Of a DNA stretch of 64,000 bases, positions 3,175-55,330 are shown one piece after another. This DNA is from Chiloscyllium plagiosum. Lineage: Eukaryota. The stretch's first letter is position 1. Each line of letters begins with the position of its first letter. Below the pieces are notes generated by a model that had not been told where the DNA came from, searched no databases, and saw only the letters and a program-made list of their open reading frames with translations. The translations under genes were made by a program, and so were the position numbers. The stretch is taken from the NCBI RefSeq assembly GCF_004010195.1, contig NC_057716.1:11094235-11158234 (forward strand). The letters are read 5' to 3'.

Positions 3175-3450
3175 TTAGACATCCATTACACGGCGGAAAG
3201 ATCCAATTGTTGGGCAAGTTGCTCCCCAGTCACTAAACTTCTTGTATTCACCGGGTCTCAGGAAGTACTGTCGCCCTCTGTAATCGGGATGTTCATAGAA
3301 GATCCAGTAACCGTCCATCACATGGCAGGAATGAATGTCACGGTAACGGAAACGATCGTAGACAGATGGACAGTCATCCATGAATTCCATCATCTGCCCT
3401 CCAAAGTCAGGCCTCTCGTAAATTTTCATTCTGTAGGAGCCATCACTGGA
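3175..3450 (-). CDS. CRYG: gamma-crystallin exon 3 (Greek keys 3-4, stop); full protein 175 aa, shark gamma-crystallin S-1-like
   Basis: ctatag|TCC; [91 protein letters not shown]; matches ORF track 3175..3429; closely resembles the bamboo-shark gamma-S1 crystallin as I recall it. Confidence 0.97.
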
Positions 3451-5060: not shown

Positions 5061-5303
5061 ATATGAGTAAGTGCGACATGACCTAATGTTGTCATTGAAT
5101 CCCATCCAGCGCTGGTAGTCAGGGTATTCTCCTTTGGTCAGAACATACTGGTATCCCATGTAATTGGGTTTCTCATACACCACCCAGCAGCCACCCTCAA
5201 CACGGATGGAGTTACAGTGGCTGAAGTAAGGGGACAGGTCGGCACAGTCACTGCTGCACTCATAGTGCCGACCCTGGAAGTTCCTGTCCTCGTAAAAGAT
5301 AAC
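5061..5303 (-). CDS. CRYG: gamma-crystallin exon 2 (Greek keys 1-2)
   Basis: ttttcag|GTT...TAT|gtaagt, 243 nt, phase 0; [81 protein letters not shown]. Confidence 0.97.
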
Positions 5304-5387
5304 CTGAAAAAATAACCATGTCTTAGCTAAGGCTGCACATGTTCAAAGAAATTAATTTAAAATAAATCAAATATAAATTAATTTCAC

Positions 5388-9164: not shown

Positions 9165-10080
9165 GTAAGAATTTATATAAATGATTTGAATGAGAATATA
9201 GAAGGCATGGTTAGTAAGTTTGTGGATGACACCAAAATTGGCAGCTTAGTAGACAATGAAGAAGATTTTCTAAGATTGCAAAGGGATTTTGAAAAATTGG
9301 TCAATTGGCTGGAAAATAGCAAATGGATTCAATCTGGATAAATGTAAGGGATTACATTTTGGTACAAAAAGCAAGGGTAGGGCTAAGACAATTAATGATA
9401 GGGTCTTGGATAGTGTTGTAGAACAGAGGGACCTAGGGGTTCAGTTGCATAATTCTTTGGTGTTTGTGTCACATATTAACAGGATGGTTAAAAAGATGTT
9501 TGGCACACTTGCCTTCATTGCTCAGTCCTTTGTGTATAAGAGTTGGGAAGTTATGTTGTGGTTGGACAGGGCATTCTGGAATACTGTATCTAGTTCTGGT
9601 TGCCCAGTTATGGGAAGGATATTATTGAGCTGGAGAGGGTTCAGAAGAGTTTTACCAAGTTGTTGCCAGAAATGGAAGGTTTGAGTTATCACTATATACA
9701 GATGAAGAAGGACACCACTTTGACTGGGACAACATCCATCCTAGGACAGGCGAAACAGAGACACGCACAGAAATTCCTAGAGGCCTGGCATTCAAACTAG
9801 AACTCCATCAATAAACACATCGATTTCGACCCCATTTACCAACCTCTGAGAGAAAGAACCGGAAATGACATGAGTTATGAAGAAAGGATGGATAGGCTGG
9901 CACTTTTTTCACTGAAGTGTAGGAGGTTGAGACAAAACATGATAGAAGTTTATAAAATAATGAGAGGTATAGATAGAGTTAATGGTAGTTGTCTTTTCCC
10001 TAGGATGGGGAATTTCAAGAGTAAAGGACACGTTTTTCAGGTGAGAGGAGAGAGATTTTAAAAAGACATGAGGAGCAAAT
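9165..10080 (+). mobile_element. CR1 (HER1-like) LINE RT/3' fragment interrupted by a Penelope fragment
   Basis: IYINDL...SKFVDDTKIG and LERVQKSFTKLLP motifs; interrupted at about 9687-9870. Confidence 0.85.
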
Positions 10081-10446
10081 GGTTCATGTGTCTTGGTCTG
10101 TTATGGTGGGTGATATCATTTTTGGTTCTTTTTCTCAGAGGTTGGTAAATGGGGTCAAAATCTATGTGTTTATTGATGGAGTTCCGGTTTGAATACCAGG
10201 CCTCTAGGAATTCCCATGTGTGCCTCAGTTTAGCCTGTCCTAGGATGGATGTGTTGTCCCAGTCGAAGTGGTGTGCTTCTTTGTATGATAGACCCACTAT
10301 CACTACATACAGAACACCAGTGCTTCACCGGAGTCTCACTGATGATGTAACCTAGCATGGTGATGAAACGTCTGAGAACAAACCTGCCAGCTCAGTGAGC
10401 AAACTTACAACCTGAACCTCAACCTGAGCTACAAATCTTCTCAAAA
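9687..10446. mobile_element. Penelope-like (family 3) GIY-YIG C-terminal fragments in both orientations plus pLTR
   Basis: HHFDWDNTSILGQAK..EFLEAW on + (about 9700-9870) and - (about 10080-10290); hammerhead-bearing end at 10310-10446. Confidence 0.75.
10334..10377 (+). ncRNA. minimal type I hammerhead ribozyme-like motif
   Basis: TCTCA-CTGATGA-T-GTAACC-TAGCAT-GGTGAT-GAAA-CG-TC^TGAGA: 5-bp stem I, intact core, imperfect stem II, palindromic ACGT stem/loop III. Confidence 0.7.
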
Positions 10447-10563
10447 ATTACAAATAGTATTTTCTGGCTTCATTTGATTCTGTACTGCAATGCCTGAGAG
10501 AGCTTGAACAATTTACAAGAAATACATAAATGCTACAGGACTTCTATTGATCTTCTGTGTTCT

Positions 10564-14329: not shown

Positions 14330-14505
14330 AAATACAGATAATGCTGGAAAATCTCAGCAGGTCTGAAGCATTTGTAGAGAGGAAACAGGGGTAATGTTTC
14401 AAGTCCAGTACAACTCTTCTTCAGAAGTAAGGAAGATTCTGAAGAGGAGTTGAAACACCAACTCTGTTTCTCTCTCCACAGCTGTTGCCAGACCTGCTTA
14501 ATTTG
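14330..14505. mobile_element. fold-back PLE-terminus element (family 4)
   Basis: ctcagcaggtctgaagca...gagaggaaacag paired with ctgtttctctctccacag...ccagacctgct; central ttcttcagaa...ttctgaaga. Related pieces near 7110, 23245/24110, 31570, 49930 and 50210. Confidence 0.55.
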
Positions 14506-23447: not shown

Positions 23448-23730
23448 AGGTCCTGGAGCAGAGCATGGGCATTGAGCCCCAGAATAGAGCATGGGCAGTG
23501 AGTCCCAGAGCAGCGTGCAGGAACGGGTTCTGGAGCAGAGCAGGGGCAGTGATTTCCAGAATACAGCATGGGCAACGAGCCCCAGCATAGAGTATGGGAA
23601 ATGAGTCCCGGAGCAGTATGCAGGAACAGGTCCTGGAGCAGAGCATGGGCAGTGAATCCCAGAACAGAGCACGGGCAGTGAGTCCCAGAACAGAGCGTGG
23701 GCAATGAGTCCCGGAGCAGAGCATGGGCAC
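23448..23730. repeat. about 26-bp minisatellite
   Basis: About 11 degenerate copies of gagcatgggcagtgagtcccagaaca, interspersed with a variant gcaggaacaggtcctggagca. Confidence 0.85.
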
Positions 23731-36934: not shown

Positions 36935-39900
36935 ATGGAATGGTTAGAGCAACAGTTAGAGGCTATGAGGAATTTATAAGACCAAGGGGATGCGATGGAT
37001 TGCAGTTATTAGAAGGGAGAAAAGTTACAGGTACAGTCACATAGATGGGTTAACTCCAGGAAAGGTAAGAGAAGTAGGCAGTTAGTGCAGGAGTCTTCTG
37101 TGGCTATCCCCATTTCAAATAAGTGTGCTGTTTTGGAAAATGTAGGGGTTGATGGATTCTCAGGGGAACGTAACACAAACAGCCAAGTTTCTGGTATTGA
37201 GACTGGCTCTAATGCAATAAGGGGTACATCAGGTTCCAAGAGAATGGTTGCGTTAGGGGACTCTCTAGTCCAAGGTACAGACAGATGTTTCTGTGGCCAG
37301 CAGCGAAAAAACAGAATGGTGTGTTGCTTCCCTGATGCCAGGATCAAGGATGTCTCAGAGAGGTTGCAGAATGTTCTCAAAGAGGGAGGGTTCAGCAGGA
37401 GCTCATCGTACACATTGGAACCAACAACATAGGAAGGGAAAAGGATAAGATTGTGAAGGGCGATTACAGAGAGTTAGGCAGGAATTTAAAAAGGAGGTCC
37501 TTGAGAGTAGTAATATCTGGATTACTCCCAGTGCTACGAGCTAGAAAGGGCAGTTATAGGTGGATAGAGCAGATGAATGCATGGCTGAGGAGCTGGTGTA
37601 TGGGAGAAGGATTCACATTTTTGGGTCATTGGATCTTTTGGGGTAGAAGTGACCTGTACAAGAAGGACTGATTGCACGTAAATTGGAAGGGAATTAAAAT
37701 ACTGGCAGGGAAATTTGCTAGAACTGCTTGGAAGGATTTAAACTAGCAAGGTGGGGACGTGGGACCCAGAGAGATATTTAGGAAAGAGATCAATCTGAGA
37801 CTGGTACAGTCGAGAAAAGAAGTGAGTCAAACAGTCAAGGCAGGCAGGAACAATGCAGAGAACAAGGTAGGAATGATAAATTAAACTGCATTTATTTCAA
37901 TGCAAGGGGCCTATCAGGGAAGGCAGATGAACTCAAGGCAGGGTAAGGACATGGGACTGGGATATCATAGCAATTACAGAAACATGGCTCAGGGATGGAC
38001 AGGACTGGCAGCCTAATGTTCCAGGATACAAATGCTACAGGGAGGACAGAAAGGAATGCAAGAGAGGAGGGGGAGTGGTGATTTTGATAAGAGATAGCAT
38101 TACAGCTGTACTGAGGGAGGATATTCCCGGAAATACATCCAGGGAAGTTATTTGTGTGGAACTGAGACATAAGAAAGGGATAATCAAATTATTGGGCTTG
38201 TATTATAGACCCCCTAATACTCAGAGAGAAATTGAAAAACAAATTTGTAAGGAGATCTGTAAGAATAATAGGGTGGTTATGATAGGGGATTTTAACTTTC
38301 CAAGCATAGACTGGGACTGCCATAATGTTAAAGGTTTAGATGGACAGAAATTTGTTAAATGTGTACAAGACAATTTTCTGATTCAGTATGTGGATGTGCC
38401 TACTAGAGAAGGTGCAAAACTTGAATACTCTTGGGAAATAAGGCAAGGCAGGTGACTGAGGTGTCAGTGGGGGAGCACTTTGGTGCCAGCGACCATAATT
38501 CTATTAGTTTTAAAATAGTGATGGAAAAAGATAGACCAGATCTAAAAGTTGAAGTTCTAAATTGGAGAAAGGCTAATTTTGACGGTATTAGGCAAGAACT
38601 TTCAAAATCTGATTGGGGGCAAATGTTCGCAGGTAAAGGGACGGCTGGAAAATGGGAAGCCTTCAGAAATGAGATAATGAGAGTGCAGAGACAATGTATT
38701 CCTGTTAGGGTGAAAGGAAAGGCTGGTAGATATACAGAATACTGGATGACTAAAGAAATTGAAGGTTCGGTTAAGAAAAGGAAGGAAACATATGTCAGGT
38801 ATAGACAGGATAAATAGAGTGAATCCTTAGAAGAGTATAAAGGCAGTTGGAGTATACTTAAGAAGGAAAACAGGAGGGCAAAAAGGCAACATGAAATAGC
38901 TATGGCAAATAGAGTTAAGGAGTATCCAAAGGGATTTTACAAATACACTAAGGACAAAAGTGTAACTAGGGAGAGAATAGGACCCTTCAAATATCAGCAA
39001 GGCGGACTATGTGTGGAGCTGCAGAAGATGGGGGAGATACTAAATGAATATTTTGCATCAGTGTTTACTGTGGAAAAGGACATGGAAGATATAGAATGTA
39101 GGGAAATAGACATCTTGAAAAATGTCCATATTACAGGGGAGGAAGTGCTGGCTGTCTTGAAATGCATAAAGATGAATAAATCCCCAGGGCCTGATCAGGT
39201 GTACCCTAGAACTCTGTGGGAAGCTAGGGAAGTGATTGTTGGGTCTCTTGCTGAGATATTTGTATCATCGATAGTCACAGGTGAGGTGCCGGATGACTGG
39301 AAATTGGCTAATGTGGTGCCACTATTTAAGAAAGGTCATAAGGACAAGCCAGGGAACTATAGACCAGTGATCCTGACGTCAGTGGTGGGCAAGTTGTTGG
39401 AGGGAATCCTGAGGGACAGGATGTACATGTATTTGGAAAGGCAAGGACAGATTCGGGATAGTCAACATGGCTTTGTGCGTGGGAAATCATGTCTCACAAA
39501 CTTGATTGAGTTTTTTTGAAGAAGTAACAAAGAGGATTGATGAGGGCATAGCGGTAGATGTGATCTATATGGGCTTCAGTAAGGCATTCGACAAGGTTCC
39601 CCATGGGAGACTGATTAGCAAGGTTAGATCTCATGGAATACAGGGAGAACTAGCCATTTGGATGCAGAACTGACTCAAAGATAGAAGACAGAGGGTGGTG
39701 GTGGAGGGTTGTTTTTCAGACTGGAGGCCTGTGACCGGTGGAGTGCCACAAGGATCGGTGCTGTGTCCTCTACTTTCTGTCATTTACATAAATGATTTGA
39801 ATGTCAGCCCAAGAGGTACAGTCAGTAAGTTTGCAGATGACACCAAAATTGGAGGTGTAGTGAACAGTGAAGAGGGATACCTCAGATTACAACCGGATCT

Positions 39901-43216: not shown

Positions 43217-43450
43217 GGAGAAAGTGAGGACTGCAGATGCTGGAGATCAGAGCTGAAAATGTGTTGCTGGAAAAGCGCAGCCGGTCAGGCAGCATCCAAG
43301 GAGCAGGAGAATCGACGTTTTGGGCATGAGCCCTTCTTCAGGAATGAGCCCTTCTTCCTGAAGAAGGGCTCATGCCCGAAACGTCGATTCTCCTGCTCCT
43401 TGGTTGCTGCCTGACCTGCTGCGCTTTTCCAGCAACACGTTTTCAGCTCT
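43217..43450. mobile_element. young fold-back family-1 PLE-terminus element with 17-bp TSD and hammerhead-like cores on both strands
   Basis: Near-perfect inverted arms of about 90 bp; CTGAAGA-A-GGGC-TCAT-GCCC-GAAA-CG-TC at 43358-85; TSD gctctggttattgaagg at 43202-18 and 43446-62. Confidence 0.9.
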
Positions 43451-46282
43451 GGTTATTGAAGGTTAATCATTTCTGCCTCAAGGCACCATTGCAGGAGTTC
43501 CACAGGCTAACTTCATGGATCCAAACACCTCAGCTACTTCAATGATCTTCCCTCCACCATAGGATCAGAAGTGGGGATGAGTACTGATGTCTACTCAGTA
43601 CTGCCGGTGTTGGACTGGGGTGTACAAAGTTAAAAATCATACAACACCAGGTTATAGTCCAACAGATTTATTTGGAAGCACTTGCTTTCGGAGCGCTGTT
43701 CCTTCATCAGGTAGCCGTGGAGTATAAGATCATAAGACACAGAATTTATAGCAACAGTTTACAGTGTGCTGTAACTGAAATTATCTATTGAAAAAGATTT
43801 GGATTGTTTGTTAAGTTTCTCATCTTTTAGAATGAACATGTTCGTTTCAGTTTTTTCATATGTATATCGCAGAACTTTTTTTAAGTTACATTCTCAAGTG
43901 AGTGTCATGTTGGCCCAGATAATGCATTGAAGGTGTGAGGTACCCTGTGTGAGACTGTCTGTGCCACAATGTTCAGACTGACTCTGATCTATGTGTGAGC
44001 GAATGAGAAAGAGCTTGTGCATGAGAGAGGGTCTGCCTGAGTGTATGGGTCTGCAGGATTGTGTGTGTCTGTAGGAGTATGTGTGTCTGTCTGTGTCTGT
44101 GTGTAGTGCAGTGGGGTCACCTGTAGTGTGACATGAATCCAAAGTCCCACCTGAGGCCATTCCCATGGGTGCCGAACTTGGCTATCTGCCTCTGCTCAGC
44201 CACTTTGCGTTGTTGCCTGTCCCGAAGTGCACCTTGGAGGACGGTCACCTGAAGATCTGAGGTCAAAGGTCCCGGATGGCTGTAGTGCTCTCCGACTGGG
44301 AGGGAACACTCCTCTCTGTTGATTGTTGTGCGGTTTCTGGATTAGTGGTGCTGGAAGAGCACAGCAATTCAGGCAGCATCCGAGGACAGGCAAAATCGAC
44401 GTTTCGGGCAAAAGCCCTTCATCAGGAATAAAGGCAGAGAGCCTGAAGCATGGAGAGATAAGCTAGAGGAGGGTGGGGGTGGGGAGAGAGTAGCATAGAG
44501 TACTTGTAGAGAGAAGAGGAAAACTTCTTCAAGGCAGGCATCCTTGCAAGAGGATTCGCAGTAGGGATTCCAGCATCTGCAGTCATTGTTTTTACCTCAA
44601 CCATAACACCACACAACCCTGTCATTGGCAACCACTGTAAGATGTGTCAGATCATTGACATGGATACTACCATTTCACATCGGGACATCACCCACCATGT
44701 ATGCGGCAGGTACTCGTGTGACTTGGCCAGCATTGTCTCTCTTGAATAAGATACTCCAAGGCATATAAGATATTCCAAGACATGGTGTATTGGCGAGACC
44801 ATGCAGACGCTACGACAACACTTGAATGGACACCGCGCAACGATCGCCAGACAGGGATGTTCTCTCCCTGTCGGGGAAGACTTCAGCAGCCAAAGACATT
44901 TGGCCTCGGATCTTCGGGTGACCATCCTCCAAGGTGAACTTTGGGATAGACGACAATGCAGAATCGCTGAGCAGAGACTGATAGCCAAGCTCAGTATCCA
45001 TGAGGACAGTCTCAACCAGGATCTTGGGTTCATGTCATACTACAGGTGACCCCACCACACTATACACTCACACACACACTCACACTCACATACAAGCACA
45101 CATACACACACAAGCACATATATACAGACATATACACACACTCTCACACAAACACACTCACACACCCACCTACTGTCACAGAGAAATACTTCATCACTAA
45201 CTTACACACTCTCTCAAGCGTGCACACAAACACACACACGTCCTTCTCCCTCACACACACACAAACACACACACGGGGTGAATTTAAATTTGCGGATTTG
45301 AGTTTGCAGATACATTATACTTTGTTCAAAAAGCACACAATCTATCGACAGTCAGTCAATGTGACAATTTTAAATTCCTACTTTGGAAATAACAACAGTG
45401 TGATTCCAGGTTGGGGACAAAACAGACTCTAACTTCACACCTTTAATGCATTGTCTGAGCTGGGCTGTCTCCTTATATTTATCTTACAAATACTGATAAA
45501 ACCTTAAATTATCTTGGGGCAGTAAATTCTGGGATTTGCATATTAATCAATCAAAACCTGCCTCACAATTCTGAGTGATTACATCTAGGTTTGTCTAATA
45601 TATTGCATCAGTTTTATGACACTGATCGTTTATAAATTCTGTGTTCTATGTATCTTTCCCCACAATCTACCTGATGAAGGAGCAGTGCTCCAAAAGCTTG
45701 TACTTTCAAATAAACCTATTGGATTATAACCTAGTGTCCACCCGAGTCCTACACCGGCACCTCCACGTCATAAGTTAGATAACAGAAACCATTTATGCAG
45801 TGACCGTTTACTTCGTTTTCTTTATGACTGATACTTCCTTTATTTTCATTAATTAGTTAGAAATACAGAAGCTTCGACTCTACTGTGATCCACAGCAAAG
45901 TGATCGGGAAACTGCCTGTGAAATCCCTTCAGTGGTGAGTAATTTAGATAATTAGCCATAACCCACAAAGGACCACAGTAGAGAAAACCATATACAGTAT
46001 ATGCTTATTTGGCTTGAGGGACACAAGTCTGCAAGCATGGGGCAAGTCGAGGAGACAGACCTCCATGAATCAGGTCTGGGACTGAACTAATACTTTTGCC
46101 ATCATTCTGCATCATATTGTAGCTATCTGGTCAACTGAGCTAATCAAACCCCTGCTGTGATGAACAAAATAGTCCACTTAACGTCTCAGCCTGGGAAACT
46201 CTTTTAATTTGTACATAATATTTGCATGTTGAGTATATTCCACGAATATTTAACTCTACAATTTATAAATCATTTTCCAATT

Positions 46283-47100: not shown

Positions 47101-48007
47101 CGGCAGGGCTGGGAGCTGGGAGCTGGTGTGGGTGTAGAGCTGGGAGTGGGGTCGGAGCCAGTACCTGGAGTGGGTGTGATGGTGGGGGGAATGGGGGTAG
47201 AGTCATGAGCAGGGGTAGTGTTCCCCTCGGGGTTCTGGGGGGTGGGGATAGTGACAGTGGGGTCTGTGGGGGGCGTGTCAGCAGAATGCAGGTGAGTGGC
47301 GCTGGTGGGGGCGGAATTGGTGGCAGGCACGGCAGTAGGGGTGGCGGAAGTCACTGAGGGTGTGGCATCGGCGATGATGTGAGGGCCGGAAGTGGCTGTG
47401 GGAGTGGCCATGATGGGGGCAGAAGTGACATCATCAATCAGCGTCGTGGTGGTAGCTGCATCAGCCGCATGGCTAATGGTGTTTCCGTGGCCAGGGGAAT
47501 CTTCTGGAATGTTTGAGGAGCGCTGGTTATGGAGGTGGGTGGATAAAAGTTTGTTGTACTTACAGTTTTTGATGTTTGAGATGGAGTTGAAATACTGTTT
47601 GTTGAGAGTATGGATTCTCCTGAGGATGTAGTACAGAGTGGGTCCTTTGCAATTCTGAGAGAGTGTAGCCCTCAGCTGAGGGAGGGCAGACTGTAGAGAG
47701 GTTAGGTGCCGGCGCATTGCTGCAAGCGTGGAGCGGAGGATCTTGATGGAGAACCGTTGCTGGTGTTTTTGAATCTGTAGTCTGTACTGTTTGTCCTGTT
47801 CGGGTCCGAACTCTGCTGGTTTAAAGGTGGTCTGGAGTCTGTGTGGGATGAGTTGGTTACGGAGACAGGCACTGAGGAAGCAAATGTGGCTGTGATAGTG
47901 AGTTTGTTTCAGGACATGGTTGAAGAGCTTCAGGGCTGAGGAAATGACCTCGGAGTTGCAGTGAGAGAGAGACTCCCTGAGATTCTTGTAGAGAGAGGAG
48001 GAAAACT
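47101..48007 (-). mobile_element. open N-terminal part of a Penelope-like ORF running into the assembly gap
   Basis: About 300 uninterrupted codons (FSSSLYKNLRESLSHC...HSHICFLSACLRNQLIP...) then a Thr/Pro-rich linker; the same FSSSLYK start occurs at about 44505-44560 next to a pLTR. Confidence 0.65.
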
Positions 48008-50662
48008 TGATGCTGCCTGAATTGCTGTGCTCTTCCAGCACCACTAATCCAGAATCTGGTTTCCAGCATCTGCAGTCATTGTTTTTACCTGATTGTTGTG
48101 CGGTGTCCATTCATCCGTTGCCGTAGCCACTGCTCAGTCTTGCCAATGTACCATGCCTCAGGACATCCTTGCCTGCAGTGTATGTGATAGACAACATTGG
48201 CTGAGTCGCGTGAGTACCTGCCACCCCACTGTACCACACACATACACACAGATACACAGAGACACAGAGAGATGCACACTCACAGACAGACAGACCTACA
48301 GACCCATGCACTCACGCAGACTCTCTGTCATACACAAGTTCTCTCTCATATACTCACACACACACACCCACGCACACATGCACCCTCTCACAGACTTATA
48401 CTCATTTACACTCACACGTACATACTCTCTTACAGACACTTATAACCAAACCCCAACACACACACACTCACATGCATGCACGTGCATGCGTACACACACA
48501 CACATACACATATAAGTTTGAGGGGTGAATTTGTACTTGCAGAATTTATTTTGTTTTGCTCAAAAACTGCATGAATCCATGTAAGATTCCGTAAATCCTT
48601 TCTTTAAGATTAGAATCAGTCTGAACATTGCAGCACAGACAGTCTCACACAGGGTACCTCACACCTTCAGTGCATTATCTGGGTCTACATGACACCAATT
48701 CTTAAAGTTTAAAGAAGTTCTGTGATTTACATATGAATAAACTGAAACCAACATGTTCATTGTAACTCACAAAGTAAACCTTTGCTATAATTTCTGTGTC
48801 ATATGATCTTATACTCCACAACCACCTGGTGAAGGAGCAGCACTCCGAAAGCTAGTGCTTCCAAATAAACCTGTTGGACTATAACCTGGTGTTGTGTGAT
48901 TTTTAACTTTGTACGATACTATTTGCAACTCCTTACATATTCTTCATGTACAAACAAAGCAAAATTTGGACAACATTCAACCTTGTGCTGATATGTAATG
49001 AAACCAAAGTACTCGAAAAGCTCAGCAGTTCATGCTTCTGTTATAGAAATGAGTTTCTCTGGCACTATCTGTTTTTATTTCAGACCTCCAGTATATGCAG
49101 AATTTTGTTCTTATTTGGGTTGATAAGTGCCAAGAGTCACTCCTGCTGTACACGTGCTAGATAATGGCTGTCTGCAACAAAACTATTTTCAATCATCTTC
49201 CCTTGATATTCAAGGGATTCACCATTGTTGAATCTCCCACTATCAACATCTTGGGATTTACCTTTGATCAGAAACGGAACTGAACTAGACTAATGCCTCT
49301 GACCCCTAACCCATCCATCATCTCCAAGGCGCAACTCAAGAGTATGATGGAATACACTCCTCTGGCCTGGATGATTGTAGCCCCTGACCATTCTGACTTA
49401 GAGATATATTGCCAATCCACTGTCACTGGGTGAGAATTCTGGAACTTCCTTCCTGACAGCATTATAGATGATAAGAAATAGGAACAAGAGTAGGTTGCTT
49501 GGTTCCTCAAGCCTGCTCCACTATTCAATAGATCATGGCTGATCCAACAATCCTCAAAGTGGAGCCCCTACAACCAAAGCACAGCAAGAAGACAGCTCAC
49601 CACCACCTCCTGAAACATTATGTCAATGGTAGGGGCCAGGTGTTGGAAAATGGGATTAAAATAGATGGATACTCGATGACTGTTGCAGACAGAATGGGCC
49701 AAAGAGTTTGGTTCTATGCCATAACAAAACATTTTATGAATTTTCCAGGGCAACCAGGGATAAGCAATCTTCTTCCAAACATTAATTTACACCCATTTTA
49801 CATTTCAACTTCTCTGTTGCTCAACTTTGCAATCCCATTTTGTCTTTTGCACTGGGCCTCCACATCATCTGTTTCCTCTGCTCCGTCTCTCCCTCTGTTG
49901 AAAGTATAAAAAGAAACACAATCTTTCAGTTCTGGAGATGGGTCATATTGAACACTAACTGTTAATTTTGGTTTTTCTTTCTTTCTACAGAGAAAACGTT
50001 TCTCCAGCATTTTTGTGTACTTGTTTCAGATTTCCAGCATCTACTATACTTTTCTAAATTAGTGATGAACAATAAAAATTGATCTAGCCAGTCACAGCCA
50101 CATTCTGTATCCCACTTACTATATTCCTCCGACTAATTCATTAATCTTTTAACGGTTCATGTTTGCGGGCTCTTAACCAAGTTAATCGATATTACTATAA
50201 TAAAGATCTACAGATGCTGAACACCTGAAACAAAAAAATTGAAACTGCTGGAGAACCTCAGCAGGTCTGGCACCATCTTTGGGACGAAAGTAGAGTTATG
50301 TTTCAAGTCCGTTGACTATCAATCAGAACTGTTAGTCGCTAGGAGAATGTGGTACTTATGCTGAAGTCAAAGTTGGGATGAGCGGAGAGACGACTGGATT
50401 GTTGGAGATGAAGCACACTGAGAGGAATGAAAGGGGTAGATAGACAAGGCGATTATGGACAGCAGGCCAGGACAGAATAAAAGCTGAATGAATGAAAATA
50501 AGAACTAAGAGTAAGAAAATGGTTTGGCTGTGCTGAATGTAACTCATTTAATGTGATAATGGGCATTGGAGTAAATTAATTAGTGGTAAAAGTAACCCAA
50601 ATCATAACAGCGAGAAAGACTGCAGGTGCTGGATTGGCTGAACTGGTCCTCAGATTCCTGAT

Positions 50663-50895
50663 GGAGAAAGTGAGGACTGCAGATGCTGGAGATCAGAGCT
50701 GAAAATGTGTTACTGGAAAAGCGCATCAGGTCAGGCAGCATCCAAGGAGCAGGAGAATTGACGTTTCGGGCATGAGCCCTTCTTCAGGAATCCTGAAGGT
50801 TTCCTGAAGAAAGGCTTATGCCCGAAACGTCGATTCTCCTGCTCCTTGGATGCTGCCTGACCTGCTGCGCTTTTCCAGCAACACATTTTCAGCTC
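50663..50895. mobile_element. fold-back family-1 element inserted into the hammerhead core of another family-1 copy
   Basis: TSD ctcagattc(c/t)tgatg at 50649-63 and 50893-907; host continues aagggcttatgcccgaaacgtc. Confidence 0.8.
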
Positions 50896-51465: not shown

Positions 51466-51640
51466 AAAGTTAAAAATCACACAATACCAGGTTACACTCC
51501 AACAGGACTCCACAACCATCTGATGATGGAGCCAGCTATGAAAGCTAGTGCTTCCAAATAAACCTGTTGGACTATAACCTGGTTTTGTGTGATTTTTTAA
51601 CTTTGTACACCCCAGTCCAACACCGGGATTTCCAATCTCC
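51466..51640. mobile_element. fold-back family-2 PLE-terminus element abutting the CpG island
   Basis: aaagttaaaaatcacacaataccagg paired with cctggttttgtgtgattttttaacttt; ctgatga...gaaagctagtg core. Confidence 0.75.
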
Positions 51641-53684: not shown

Positions 53685-55155
53685 TGATCATAATACCATG
53701 GGTTTTAAGATACTCATGGATAGAGATAACAGCAGTTCTCGGGTGAAAGTGGTAAACAGGGTGAAGGTGAACTACAACAATATTAGGCAGGAACTGGAGA
53801 ATTTTGACAGTGGCCTCTATGGGTAAATCCACAGCGGGCATGGAGGATTATTTTGAACTGCAGTTGTTAAGAGTTTAAGTGGCGTGTTCTTGTCAGAATG
53901 AAGGATCGGTTTGGAAAGTTTCTTGAACCATGGATGACCAGGGTCAAATAAGTCATAAAATGATCTTGATCATAAAGAAAAGGAAGCATATATAAGGTCT
54001 AGGATGCTGGGAATTGACGAAGGCTTTAATATATAAAGAAAGTAGGAAAGAAAATAAACAAGGAATTAGAAGGACTAAAAGGGGTCATGCAAAGTCATTA
54101 GCAAACAGGATGAAGGTGAATGTCAAGCTTTTTATACATATATAGAGTCATAGAGATGTACAGCATGGAAACAGACCCTTTGGTACAACCCGTCCATGCC
54201 GACCAGCTATCTCAACCCAATCTAGTCCCATCTGCCAGCACCCGGCCCATATCCCTCCAAACCCTTCCAATTCATATACCCATCCAAATGCCTCTTAAAT
54301 GTTGCAATTGTATAAAAAGCAAGAGGGTACCTAGGAAAAGATTTAGCCACTCCAGGGCAAAGGAGGGTATCTATGTGGATCCAGAAGAGGTAGGTGAGGT
54401 CCTAAACTAATACTTTGTTAGTATTCACCAAAGAGAAGGAATTAGTGGAGAATGATTTCTAAGCCAAGTCCTATTGAAAAGTTGTTATATGTTTTAAAGT
54501 ATTAAGGTAGTTAAGTTCCTGACTCCTGATGGGATCTATCCCAGAATATTGAGGGAGGCAAGAGAACAAATTGCTGGAGCATTGACAGACATCTTTGTAT
54601 CCTCTTTGCCATAGGTGAGGTCCCAGAGGACTGGAAATTAGCCCATGTCGTCCTATTGTTTAAGAAGGGGTAGCAGGGTTAAATCCAGAAATTATCAACC
54701 TGTGAGCGTCACGTCAGTGGTATGGAAATTATTGGAAAAAGATTCTCTGGGATAAGATCTATATGCATTTAGAAGTAAATGAACTTATTAGCGATAGACA
54801 CATGGTTTTGTGCGGGGGAGGTTGTGCCTCTCCAACTTGATAGAGTTTTTTGAGGTGGTGATGAAGGGTTTGATGTCTGCGTGGACTTCAGTAAAGCCTT
54901 TGACAAAGTTCCTCATGGTTGACTGGTACAAAAGGTGAAGTCCCAGTGTCAGGGGTGAGCTGGCAAAATGGTGCAGAACTGGCTTAGTCCTAGAAGACAG
55001 GATAGCAGTGGACGGACTTTTCTGGAATGGAGGGTTGTAACTAATGGTGTTCCATAGGGACCAGTGCTAGAACCGTTGCTGTTTGTGTTTGACATAAATT
55101 ATTTGGAGGAAAGCGTGGCTGGTCTAATTAAGTTTGCGGACAATACAAAGATTCT
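53685..55155 (+). mobile_element. decayed CR1 ORF2 fragment with a nested inverted CR1 tail (54145-54310)
   Basis: Recognisable DHN, ccagaaattatcaacc, catggttttgtg and aagtttgcgga motifs. Confidence 0.8.
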
Positions 55156-55159
55156 GGAT

Positions 55160-55330
55160 ATAGGTTTGTTGCTGAGTTGGAAGGTTCATTTTCAGACATT
55201 TCCTCACCATACTAAGTAACATCTTCAGTGAGCTTCTGGACAAAGCACTGCTGATGATTCCTGCTTTCTATTTGTATGTTTGGGTTTCTTTGGGTTGGTG
55301 ATGACATTTTCTGTGGTGATGTCATTTTGG
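55160..55330 (-). mobile_element. family-3 Penelope pLTR with degenerate hammerhead motif
   Basis: Minus strand TCA-CTGAAGA-T-GTTAC...GTGAG-GAAA-TG-TC-TGA (55231-55192), homologous to 10334-10377. Confidence 0.65.

Follow-up and report, generated by a model that had tools for sequence, protein, structure and literature searches.

We consider it highly probable that the motif at 10334-10377 of the window (the whole 64,000-nt stretch of Chiloscyllium plagiosum DNA analysed here) is a minimal type I hammerhead carried in the 3' repeat of a truncated Penelope-like retrotransposon, and that it is a decayed relic, likely neither transcribed within an element nor selected to cut. The original prediction recognized the type of motif, but missed that it is the cargo of a Penelope-like pLTR. 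This setting is a known one: minimal hammerhead ribozymes (min-HHRs) of the pLTRs of Penelope-like elements (PLEs) are already described in the available text of PMC4209133 and PMC11167929.

Anatomy of the motif

As read from its sequence, 10334-10377 is a minimal type I hammerhead motif. Direct reading and a script both recover the five Watson-Crick pairs of stem I (TCTCA 10334-10338 with TGAGA 10373-10377), and the other parts of the original prediction are likewise in place: an intact CUGAUGA (10339-10345) and GAAA (10365-10368), an extra nucleotide after A9 (T at 10346), a palindromic ACGU (ACGT 10368-10371) that replaces helix III, and a GUC triplet (GTC 10370-10372) with cleavage predicted after 10372, which lies 28 nt from the A of an AUG discussed below. 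Residue positions follow the standard hammerhead numbering. The order typical of type I min-HHRs, CUGANGA ... GAAA ... UH, is found together with the lack of a helix III, and the extra T, an unpaired nucleotide between A9 and 10.1, is present in 62 of 65 copies. The coordinates of the motif, of its host element and of related pieces are collected in Table 1.

Table 1. Features of the hammerhead motif, its host element and related pieces in the window
Feature	Positions	Strand	Basis or remark
Further sense-strand piece of the same endonuclease end, inside another repeat	9690..9870	+	8-bp direct repeat 9682-9689 and 9871-9878
Inverted element piece, GIY-YIG endonuclease C-terminus, abutting the pLTR	10083..10287	-	71% identical to a family copy by tblastn (E 6e-24)
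3' pLTR of a 5'-truncated Penelope-like element	10309..10448	+	extends to the long end of the family, at +104 counted from the AUG
Minimal type I hammerhead motif, subfamily A of family 3	10334..10377	+	sequence reading and script
Stem I, 5' arm	10334..10338	+	partner 10373-10377; family pairs are 10336-10338 with 10373-10375
Core C3-U4-G5-A6-N7-G8-A9 (CTGATGA), intact	10339..10345	+	script, copy alignment
A9, extra U, G10.1: predicted start codon of the element ORF when the repeat is upstream	10345..10347	+	
Stem II (10347-10352 with 10359-10364) and 6-nt loop, damaged	10347..10364	+	copy alignment, folding
G12-A13-A14-A15.1, ACGT, GUC triplet	10365..10372	+	sequence reading, script
AC-rich optional tail, ~35 nt, between the family's two 3' ends	10414..10448	+	end counts; boundary 10414 approximate
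Solo pLTR of sister subfamily B, with decayed hammerhead 55192-55231	55149..55269	-	

The host element

A search of the 3.56 Gb genome with 10309-10448 gave 4,923 first-look candidates, of which 40 were scored; the 39 best besides the query itself are 91-96% identical. In a comparison of 30 loci the repeat had a sharply defined 3' end common to the copies, while its 5' ends were scattered; upstream of it a GIY-YIG endonuclease frame comes to its end. The endonuclease protein itself recovered 86,010 first-look genome candidates, a count that includes related families, and longer copies carry a reverse transcriptase (RT; Pfam RVT_1, E 1.3e-12 in locus L110). The GIY-YIG signal is weak, with all three endonuclease pieces under the Pfam cut-off (E 0.0008-0.003). 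The order N-terminal region, RT, endonuclease is seen in at least L158, L164, L165 and L175, and the complete series of repeat, N-terminal region, RT, endonuclease and repeat lies on one strand in at least L158, L164 and L175. An ORF with an RT plus a GIY-YIG domain at its C-terminus, the hallmark of endonuclease-bearing (EN+) PLEs, is found in these relatives, and the copy at 10309 keeps only the endonuclease end. The ORFs of all copies examined are broken. A search of solved structures with an RT-endonuclease piece returned five weak, unrelated matches (E 0.36-0.72). The linker between RT and endonuclease in L109, a member of subfamily D, lacks a zinc-finger motif, its only CxxC falling within the endonuclease match; by the linker criterion given in the available text of PMC8557442 this points to the Penelope/Poseidon clade, an assignment made from one copy and not from a tree.

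Of 182 copies picked without regard to the tail, 92 have their end at +65 to +79, with the A of the AUG as reference, and 73 reach +100 or further, the latter bin including copies that continue into the ORF. This two-end pattern is the optional tail, 30-40 nt long, that Penelope elements can have. All four of the structural features listed for PLEs in the available text of PMC8557442, namely pLTRs, 5' truncation, an adjacent inverted piece and the 30-40 nt optional tail, are found in the family or in the 10309 insertion. No target-site duplication longer than 5 nt was seen around 10083-10448 in the stretches compared. The second, sense piece of the endonuclease end (9690-9870) may stem from the same insertion event as the 10309 pLTR. 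That interval, 9682-9878 with its direct repeats, is a 181-nt endonuclease-end piece lacking a pLTR within a LINE-like repeat, and lies ~210 nt from the inverted copy of the same piece, to which it is 88% identical; the surrounding 9171-10082 is presumably a fragment of a CR1-like LINE. Elsewhere in the window, a minus-strand frame at ~47200-48110 resembles the N-terminal region of a Penelope-like ORF, with an assembly gap inside and no Pfam match. At two loci of the genome, L032 and L123, the pLTR region is directly duplicated in tandem, an arrangement that would put two motifs on one RNA.

Decay of the 10334 copy and its relatives

The state of the motif was judged against 65 unique copies chosen independently of it, which belong to subfamily A with a few close copies of subfamily B, and rates at G12 and other sites were taken as per-column counts. 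Stem I has three, four or five pairs in 40, 13 and 1 of the 65 copies. Hence the 'perfect 5-bp' stem I of the original prediction holds as far as the pairs go, but arose by accident in this copy, since three pairs are the family norm and four are found in a minority: 18 of 65 copies have G at 10376, which makes the fourth pair polymorphic, and a single one of the 65 has T at 10334, so that the fifth is private. Stem II has fared worse. A10349, seen in 2 of 65 copies, sets an A opposite a G, and T10364 is a CpG decay (C in 38 copies, T in 26) that turns the G10.1-C11.1 pair into G-U. In the family this pair is kept, C being the commonest base (38 of 65) and the pair itself being formed in 34 of 65. 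The script finds only two contiguous stem II pairs in the 10334 copy; its hairpin is worth -2.8 kcal/mol as against -6.7 in undamaged copies, and its pair probabilities are 0-0.44 as against 0.96-1.0 in four undamaged copies. Altogether the copy bears seven substitutions in ~140 nt, two of which weaken stem II and one of which makes the fifth stem I pair.

The ranking of this motif as the best formed in the window therefore does not stand: it took only stem I into account and left the damaged stem II unassessed. Three family 1 copies (43358, 44398-44425 and 50760-50787) have four contiguous stem II pairs with G10.1-C11.1, and these same copies have a clean core and palindrome, yet only 0-2 stem I pairs. 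Within its own family, the core is fully intact in 20 of 65 copies and the palindrome in 19 of 65, the 10334 copy keeping both, and all features are kept in 4 of 65; the undamaged 42-nt motif occurs at 26 places genome-wide. No sign of catalytic selection is seen among the genomic copies: at G12, 22 of 64 are changed, which is the ordinary rate of CpG decay (127 of 378 cells at flanking CpGs). The 10334 copy is an ordinary, mutation-worn one and is likely inactive, though residual activity under forcing conditions would still be conceivable with all of the core and palindrome retained. It is a poor test substrate because its stem II is damaged, and the 26 undamaged genomic copies are better ones.

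Families and conservation of structure

Families 1, 2 and 3 exist as originally described, each with more than 1,000 first-look genome candidates. A comparison of 201 unique strict cores, drawn from all loci and the window, showed that family 1 (64 cores) and family 2 (17 cores) have stems other than those of family 3. The middle of the palindrome is CG in families 1 and 3 and GC in family 2 (AGCT), and the family majorities are all G10.1-C11.1, CpG decay aside. Within family 3 the outer stem I pair is T-A in subfamilies A and B, C-G in C and D, and G-C in E. The homologue claimed at 55192-55231 on the minus strand does keep the layout, but is more decayed, with a 3-bp stem I, a broken palindrome (ATGT) and a G opposite G at 10.1/11.1. 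The suggestion of structure-level conservation across families was borne out, the families keeping the structure while their sequences differ. The covariation score is 0.208 on 10 copies that were hand-picked from about 245; 0 of 500 shuffles reach this value and slid controls stay at or below 0.095. With the rows related and both partners altered in only 2 of 11 pairs, covariation is supporting and not decisive for structural conservation, which reflects selection in active ancestors and not in the present copies. Family 3 is a clean series, with five subfamilies, compensatory stem changes and a common AUG in the core.

Several further observations were made on the other families. The family 1 cores in the window lie at 208-235, 897-924, 43358-43385, 44398-44425 (minus), 50760-50787 (minus) and 50804-50831. 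The region 43330-43420 of this family gave 1,561 first-look genome candidates, and 40 of 40 scored places also match the opposite strand ~40-50 nt away, forming fold-back pairs. The family 2 cores at 43686-43710 (minus) and 51520-51547 have the palindrome AGCT and a CUA triplet, with 2,018 first-look candidates. The core at 14393-14424 (minus) resembles a fourth family, with an AGTT/AACT stem I and a GUU-type triplet, of which four cores occur at other loci.

The extra nucleotide and the start codon

In the predicted AUG of the element's ORF, the second letter is the extra U that follows A9. Using the 5' end of the ORF as query, 25 loci were recovered, 13 of which carry the motif immediately upstream of where the ORF starts. 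An ATG at A9-extra-G10.1 is present in 10 of these 13 upstream repeats and in frame with the ORF in 9 of 13; its spacing to the ORF is exactly 99 nt in 6 of 13. Of 6 that were checked, 4 have a stop in the same frame shortly upstream. Four of the 13 upstream repeats are out of frame. In subfamily D the motif is upstream at 4 of 30 loci, and is in frame at 1 of those 4. The frame losses in both sets are read as the result of later indels. In subfamilies with A at position 7 the preceding ATG is lost and the A9-U-G10.1 ATG is kept. The link to the AUG is specific to family 3, because families 1 and 2 carry A as the extra base. Codon 2 of the 10334 copy is a TAA stop (10348-10350) owing to the private A10349.

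We think it possible, if doubtful, that the Poseidon-type hammerhead is a translation switch around the AUG. The A9-U-G10.1 AUG would be held inside the core and stem II, and the element's protein would promote a cut 28 nt downstream, parting the AUG from its ORF; this cut might exert negative feedback on protein synthesis, and the uncut RNA would be the form copied into the genome. If this were true, subfamilies A-E, in which the triplet is kept and N7 and the stems vary, would offer a natural test series.

Alternative explanations

The words CTGATGA and GAAA are common and the fold is unstable, so that the motif might be a mere chance match. Rfam gives such a view some encouragement: at gathering thresholds no family reached its threshold over the whole window, and at E up to 10 over 10250-10480 there were 11 chance matches, none of them to a hammerhead. 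Likewise, the hammerhead was not the fold of lowest energy when monomers were folded (z -1.0 and +0.7), a result that is expected because helix III is absent and that was not counted against the motif. Against it, the loose core pattern has 15 matches in the window (shuffle mean 5.8, maximum 12), the core plus U-H has 10 (mean 1.96, maximum 7), and a core with at least five stem I pairs and the palindrome occurs once in the window and in 0 of 200 shuffles. The position and layout moreover agree with the published PLE motif, and the shuffles together with the family-level covariation refute a chance match, whose probability we regard as negligible. A more specific competitor is a non-coding non-LTR retrozyme, i.e. 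a small tandem repeat spread via circular RNA, in place of a Penelope end. The available text of a recent preprint (bioRxiv 10.64898/2026.07.22.740005) reports that animal type I hammerheads are often found in retrozymes, which are perhaps pLTR-derived, and that one chondrichthyan genome carries them; the two kinds of motif also share a likely pLTR ancestry and dimer-dependent cutting. However, retrozymes are non-coding tandem repeats, whereas 10309-10448 is the dispersed end of a coding element: a search for a tandem array at the locus found none, the 5' ends are scattered and the 3' ends fixed, and the repeat is joined to endonuclease-coding DNA here and in most relatives. The linked ORF largely refutes the retrozyme reading, and we hold it to be very improbable.

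There is also the possibility that the 10334 copy still works, cutting a host or read-through transcript after 10372. Its core bases, palindrome and GUC are intact and its stem I is longer than that of the family. Nevertheless, stem II is damaged, the window holds no second family copy on the same strand, the only other pLTR match being on the minus strand 45 kb off, and published minimal motifs did not cleave as bare monomers in the experiments described in the available text of PMC4209133 and PMC11167929. Since single minimal motifs did not cut, dimers cut little and the hammerhead of the anole element PAc needed the element's protein, the refutation put forward with the original prediction, absence of Mg2+-dependent cleavage at GUC 10372, is unsafe and the assay suggested with it would be misleading. 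The only host gene found, by a Pfam scan that covered 65 of 127 unmasked frames, is a crystallin on the opposite strand and 5 kb off. A working ribozyme at this place is accordingly improbable, and a weak stem II, the lack of a same-strand partner in the window and the presence nearby of only an opposite-strand crystallin make it likely that the copy is silent. Matches in four runs at 97%, of which 2-6% of the raw data were covered and which may come from another organism, were partial and repeat-derived, and the three runs of RNA or possible RNA left the unique flank uncovered; these reads carry no weight for or against expression.

As regards the surroundings, the beta/gamma-crystallin gene has two recognizable exons on the minus strand, at 3178-3450 and ~5073-5309 (Pfam Crystall, E 1e-35 and 9e-33); no exon 1 could be placed, and we take the gene to be gamma-type. 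Endonuclease- and RT-like frames at 37000-39500 are presumably fragments of CR1-like LINEs, and a decayed minisatellite with periods of 26, 51 and 103 occupies 23459-23729.

Proposed history and mechanism

From published work on related elements, the following history might be envisaged for the Penelope pLTR motif. In the once-active element a tandem transcript would have carried two or more motifs, and the ACGU palindromes of two of them would pair to supply the missing helix III; alternatively, the element's protein may aid folding. Cleavage would take place after C17, 28 nt inside the ORF, and reverse transcription would begin further downstream, in the AC-rich tail. The template RNA of the 10309-10448 insertion was uncut, or had been rejoined, at the motif, because the insertion spans the cut site unbroken. 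The seven substitutions would have been gathered after insertion.

Relationship to published elements

Cervera and De la Pena (2014, PMC4209133) describe, in the available part of their report, min-HHRs in the pLTRs of metazoan PLEs, including those of the fish elements Xena, Poseidon and Neptune, and propose that these minimal motifs act as dimers via the palindrome; a single motif did not cleave, and dimers and trimers cut weakly. Family 3 shares with them the type I order without helix III and with a palindromic 15.2-16.2, a single nucleotide separating A9 from 10.1, a G10.1-C11.1 pair (at family level, the 10334 copy having lost it), a short stem I, a long stem II, the location in pLTRs, and thousands of mostly solitary copies that fall into several consensus families. 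The stems differ in length: family 3 has 6 bp in stem II and 3-4 bp in stem I, the Schistosoma families 7-8 and 4-5 bp. A search of supplement file 2 of that paper turned up no entry from a shark, and a literature search on Penelope, shark and hammerhead ribozyme gave a match (PMC6155905) whose available text uses 'shark' only in a ribozyme name.

While the single 10334 copy, one among thousands of decayed Penelope ends, matters little, the family 3 series can be used to ask what the hammerhead does for endonuclease-bearing Penelope elements, a role that the available text of PMC8557442 calls unclear. The closest functional parallel is PAc, the Poseidon element of Anolis carolinensis (Frangieh et al. 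2024, PMC11167929). As described in the available text, its hammerhead cut only with the element's protein present, cutting was dispensable for insertion in vitro, and reverse transcription starts inside a downstream AC-rich stem-loop. PAc is an expressed element and has been tested in vitro, whereas the family 3 copies examined are all broken. Compared by description and not by sequence, its layout is like that of family 3: the ORF begins at stem II, with the start codon in the same arrangement, and the cut falls 26 nt after the start codon, against a predicted 28 nt from the A of the AUG in family 3. Further, two RT starts bound the tail of PAc just as two 3' ends do in family 3. The positions differ, initiation lying 111-118 nt into the ORF of PAc and the family 3 ends at about +70 and +104.
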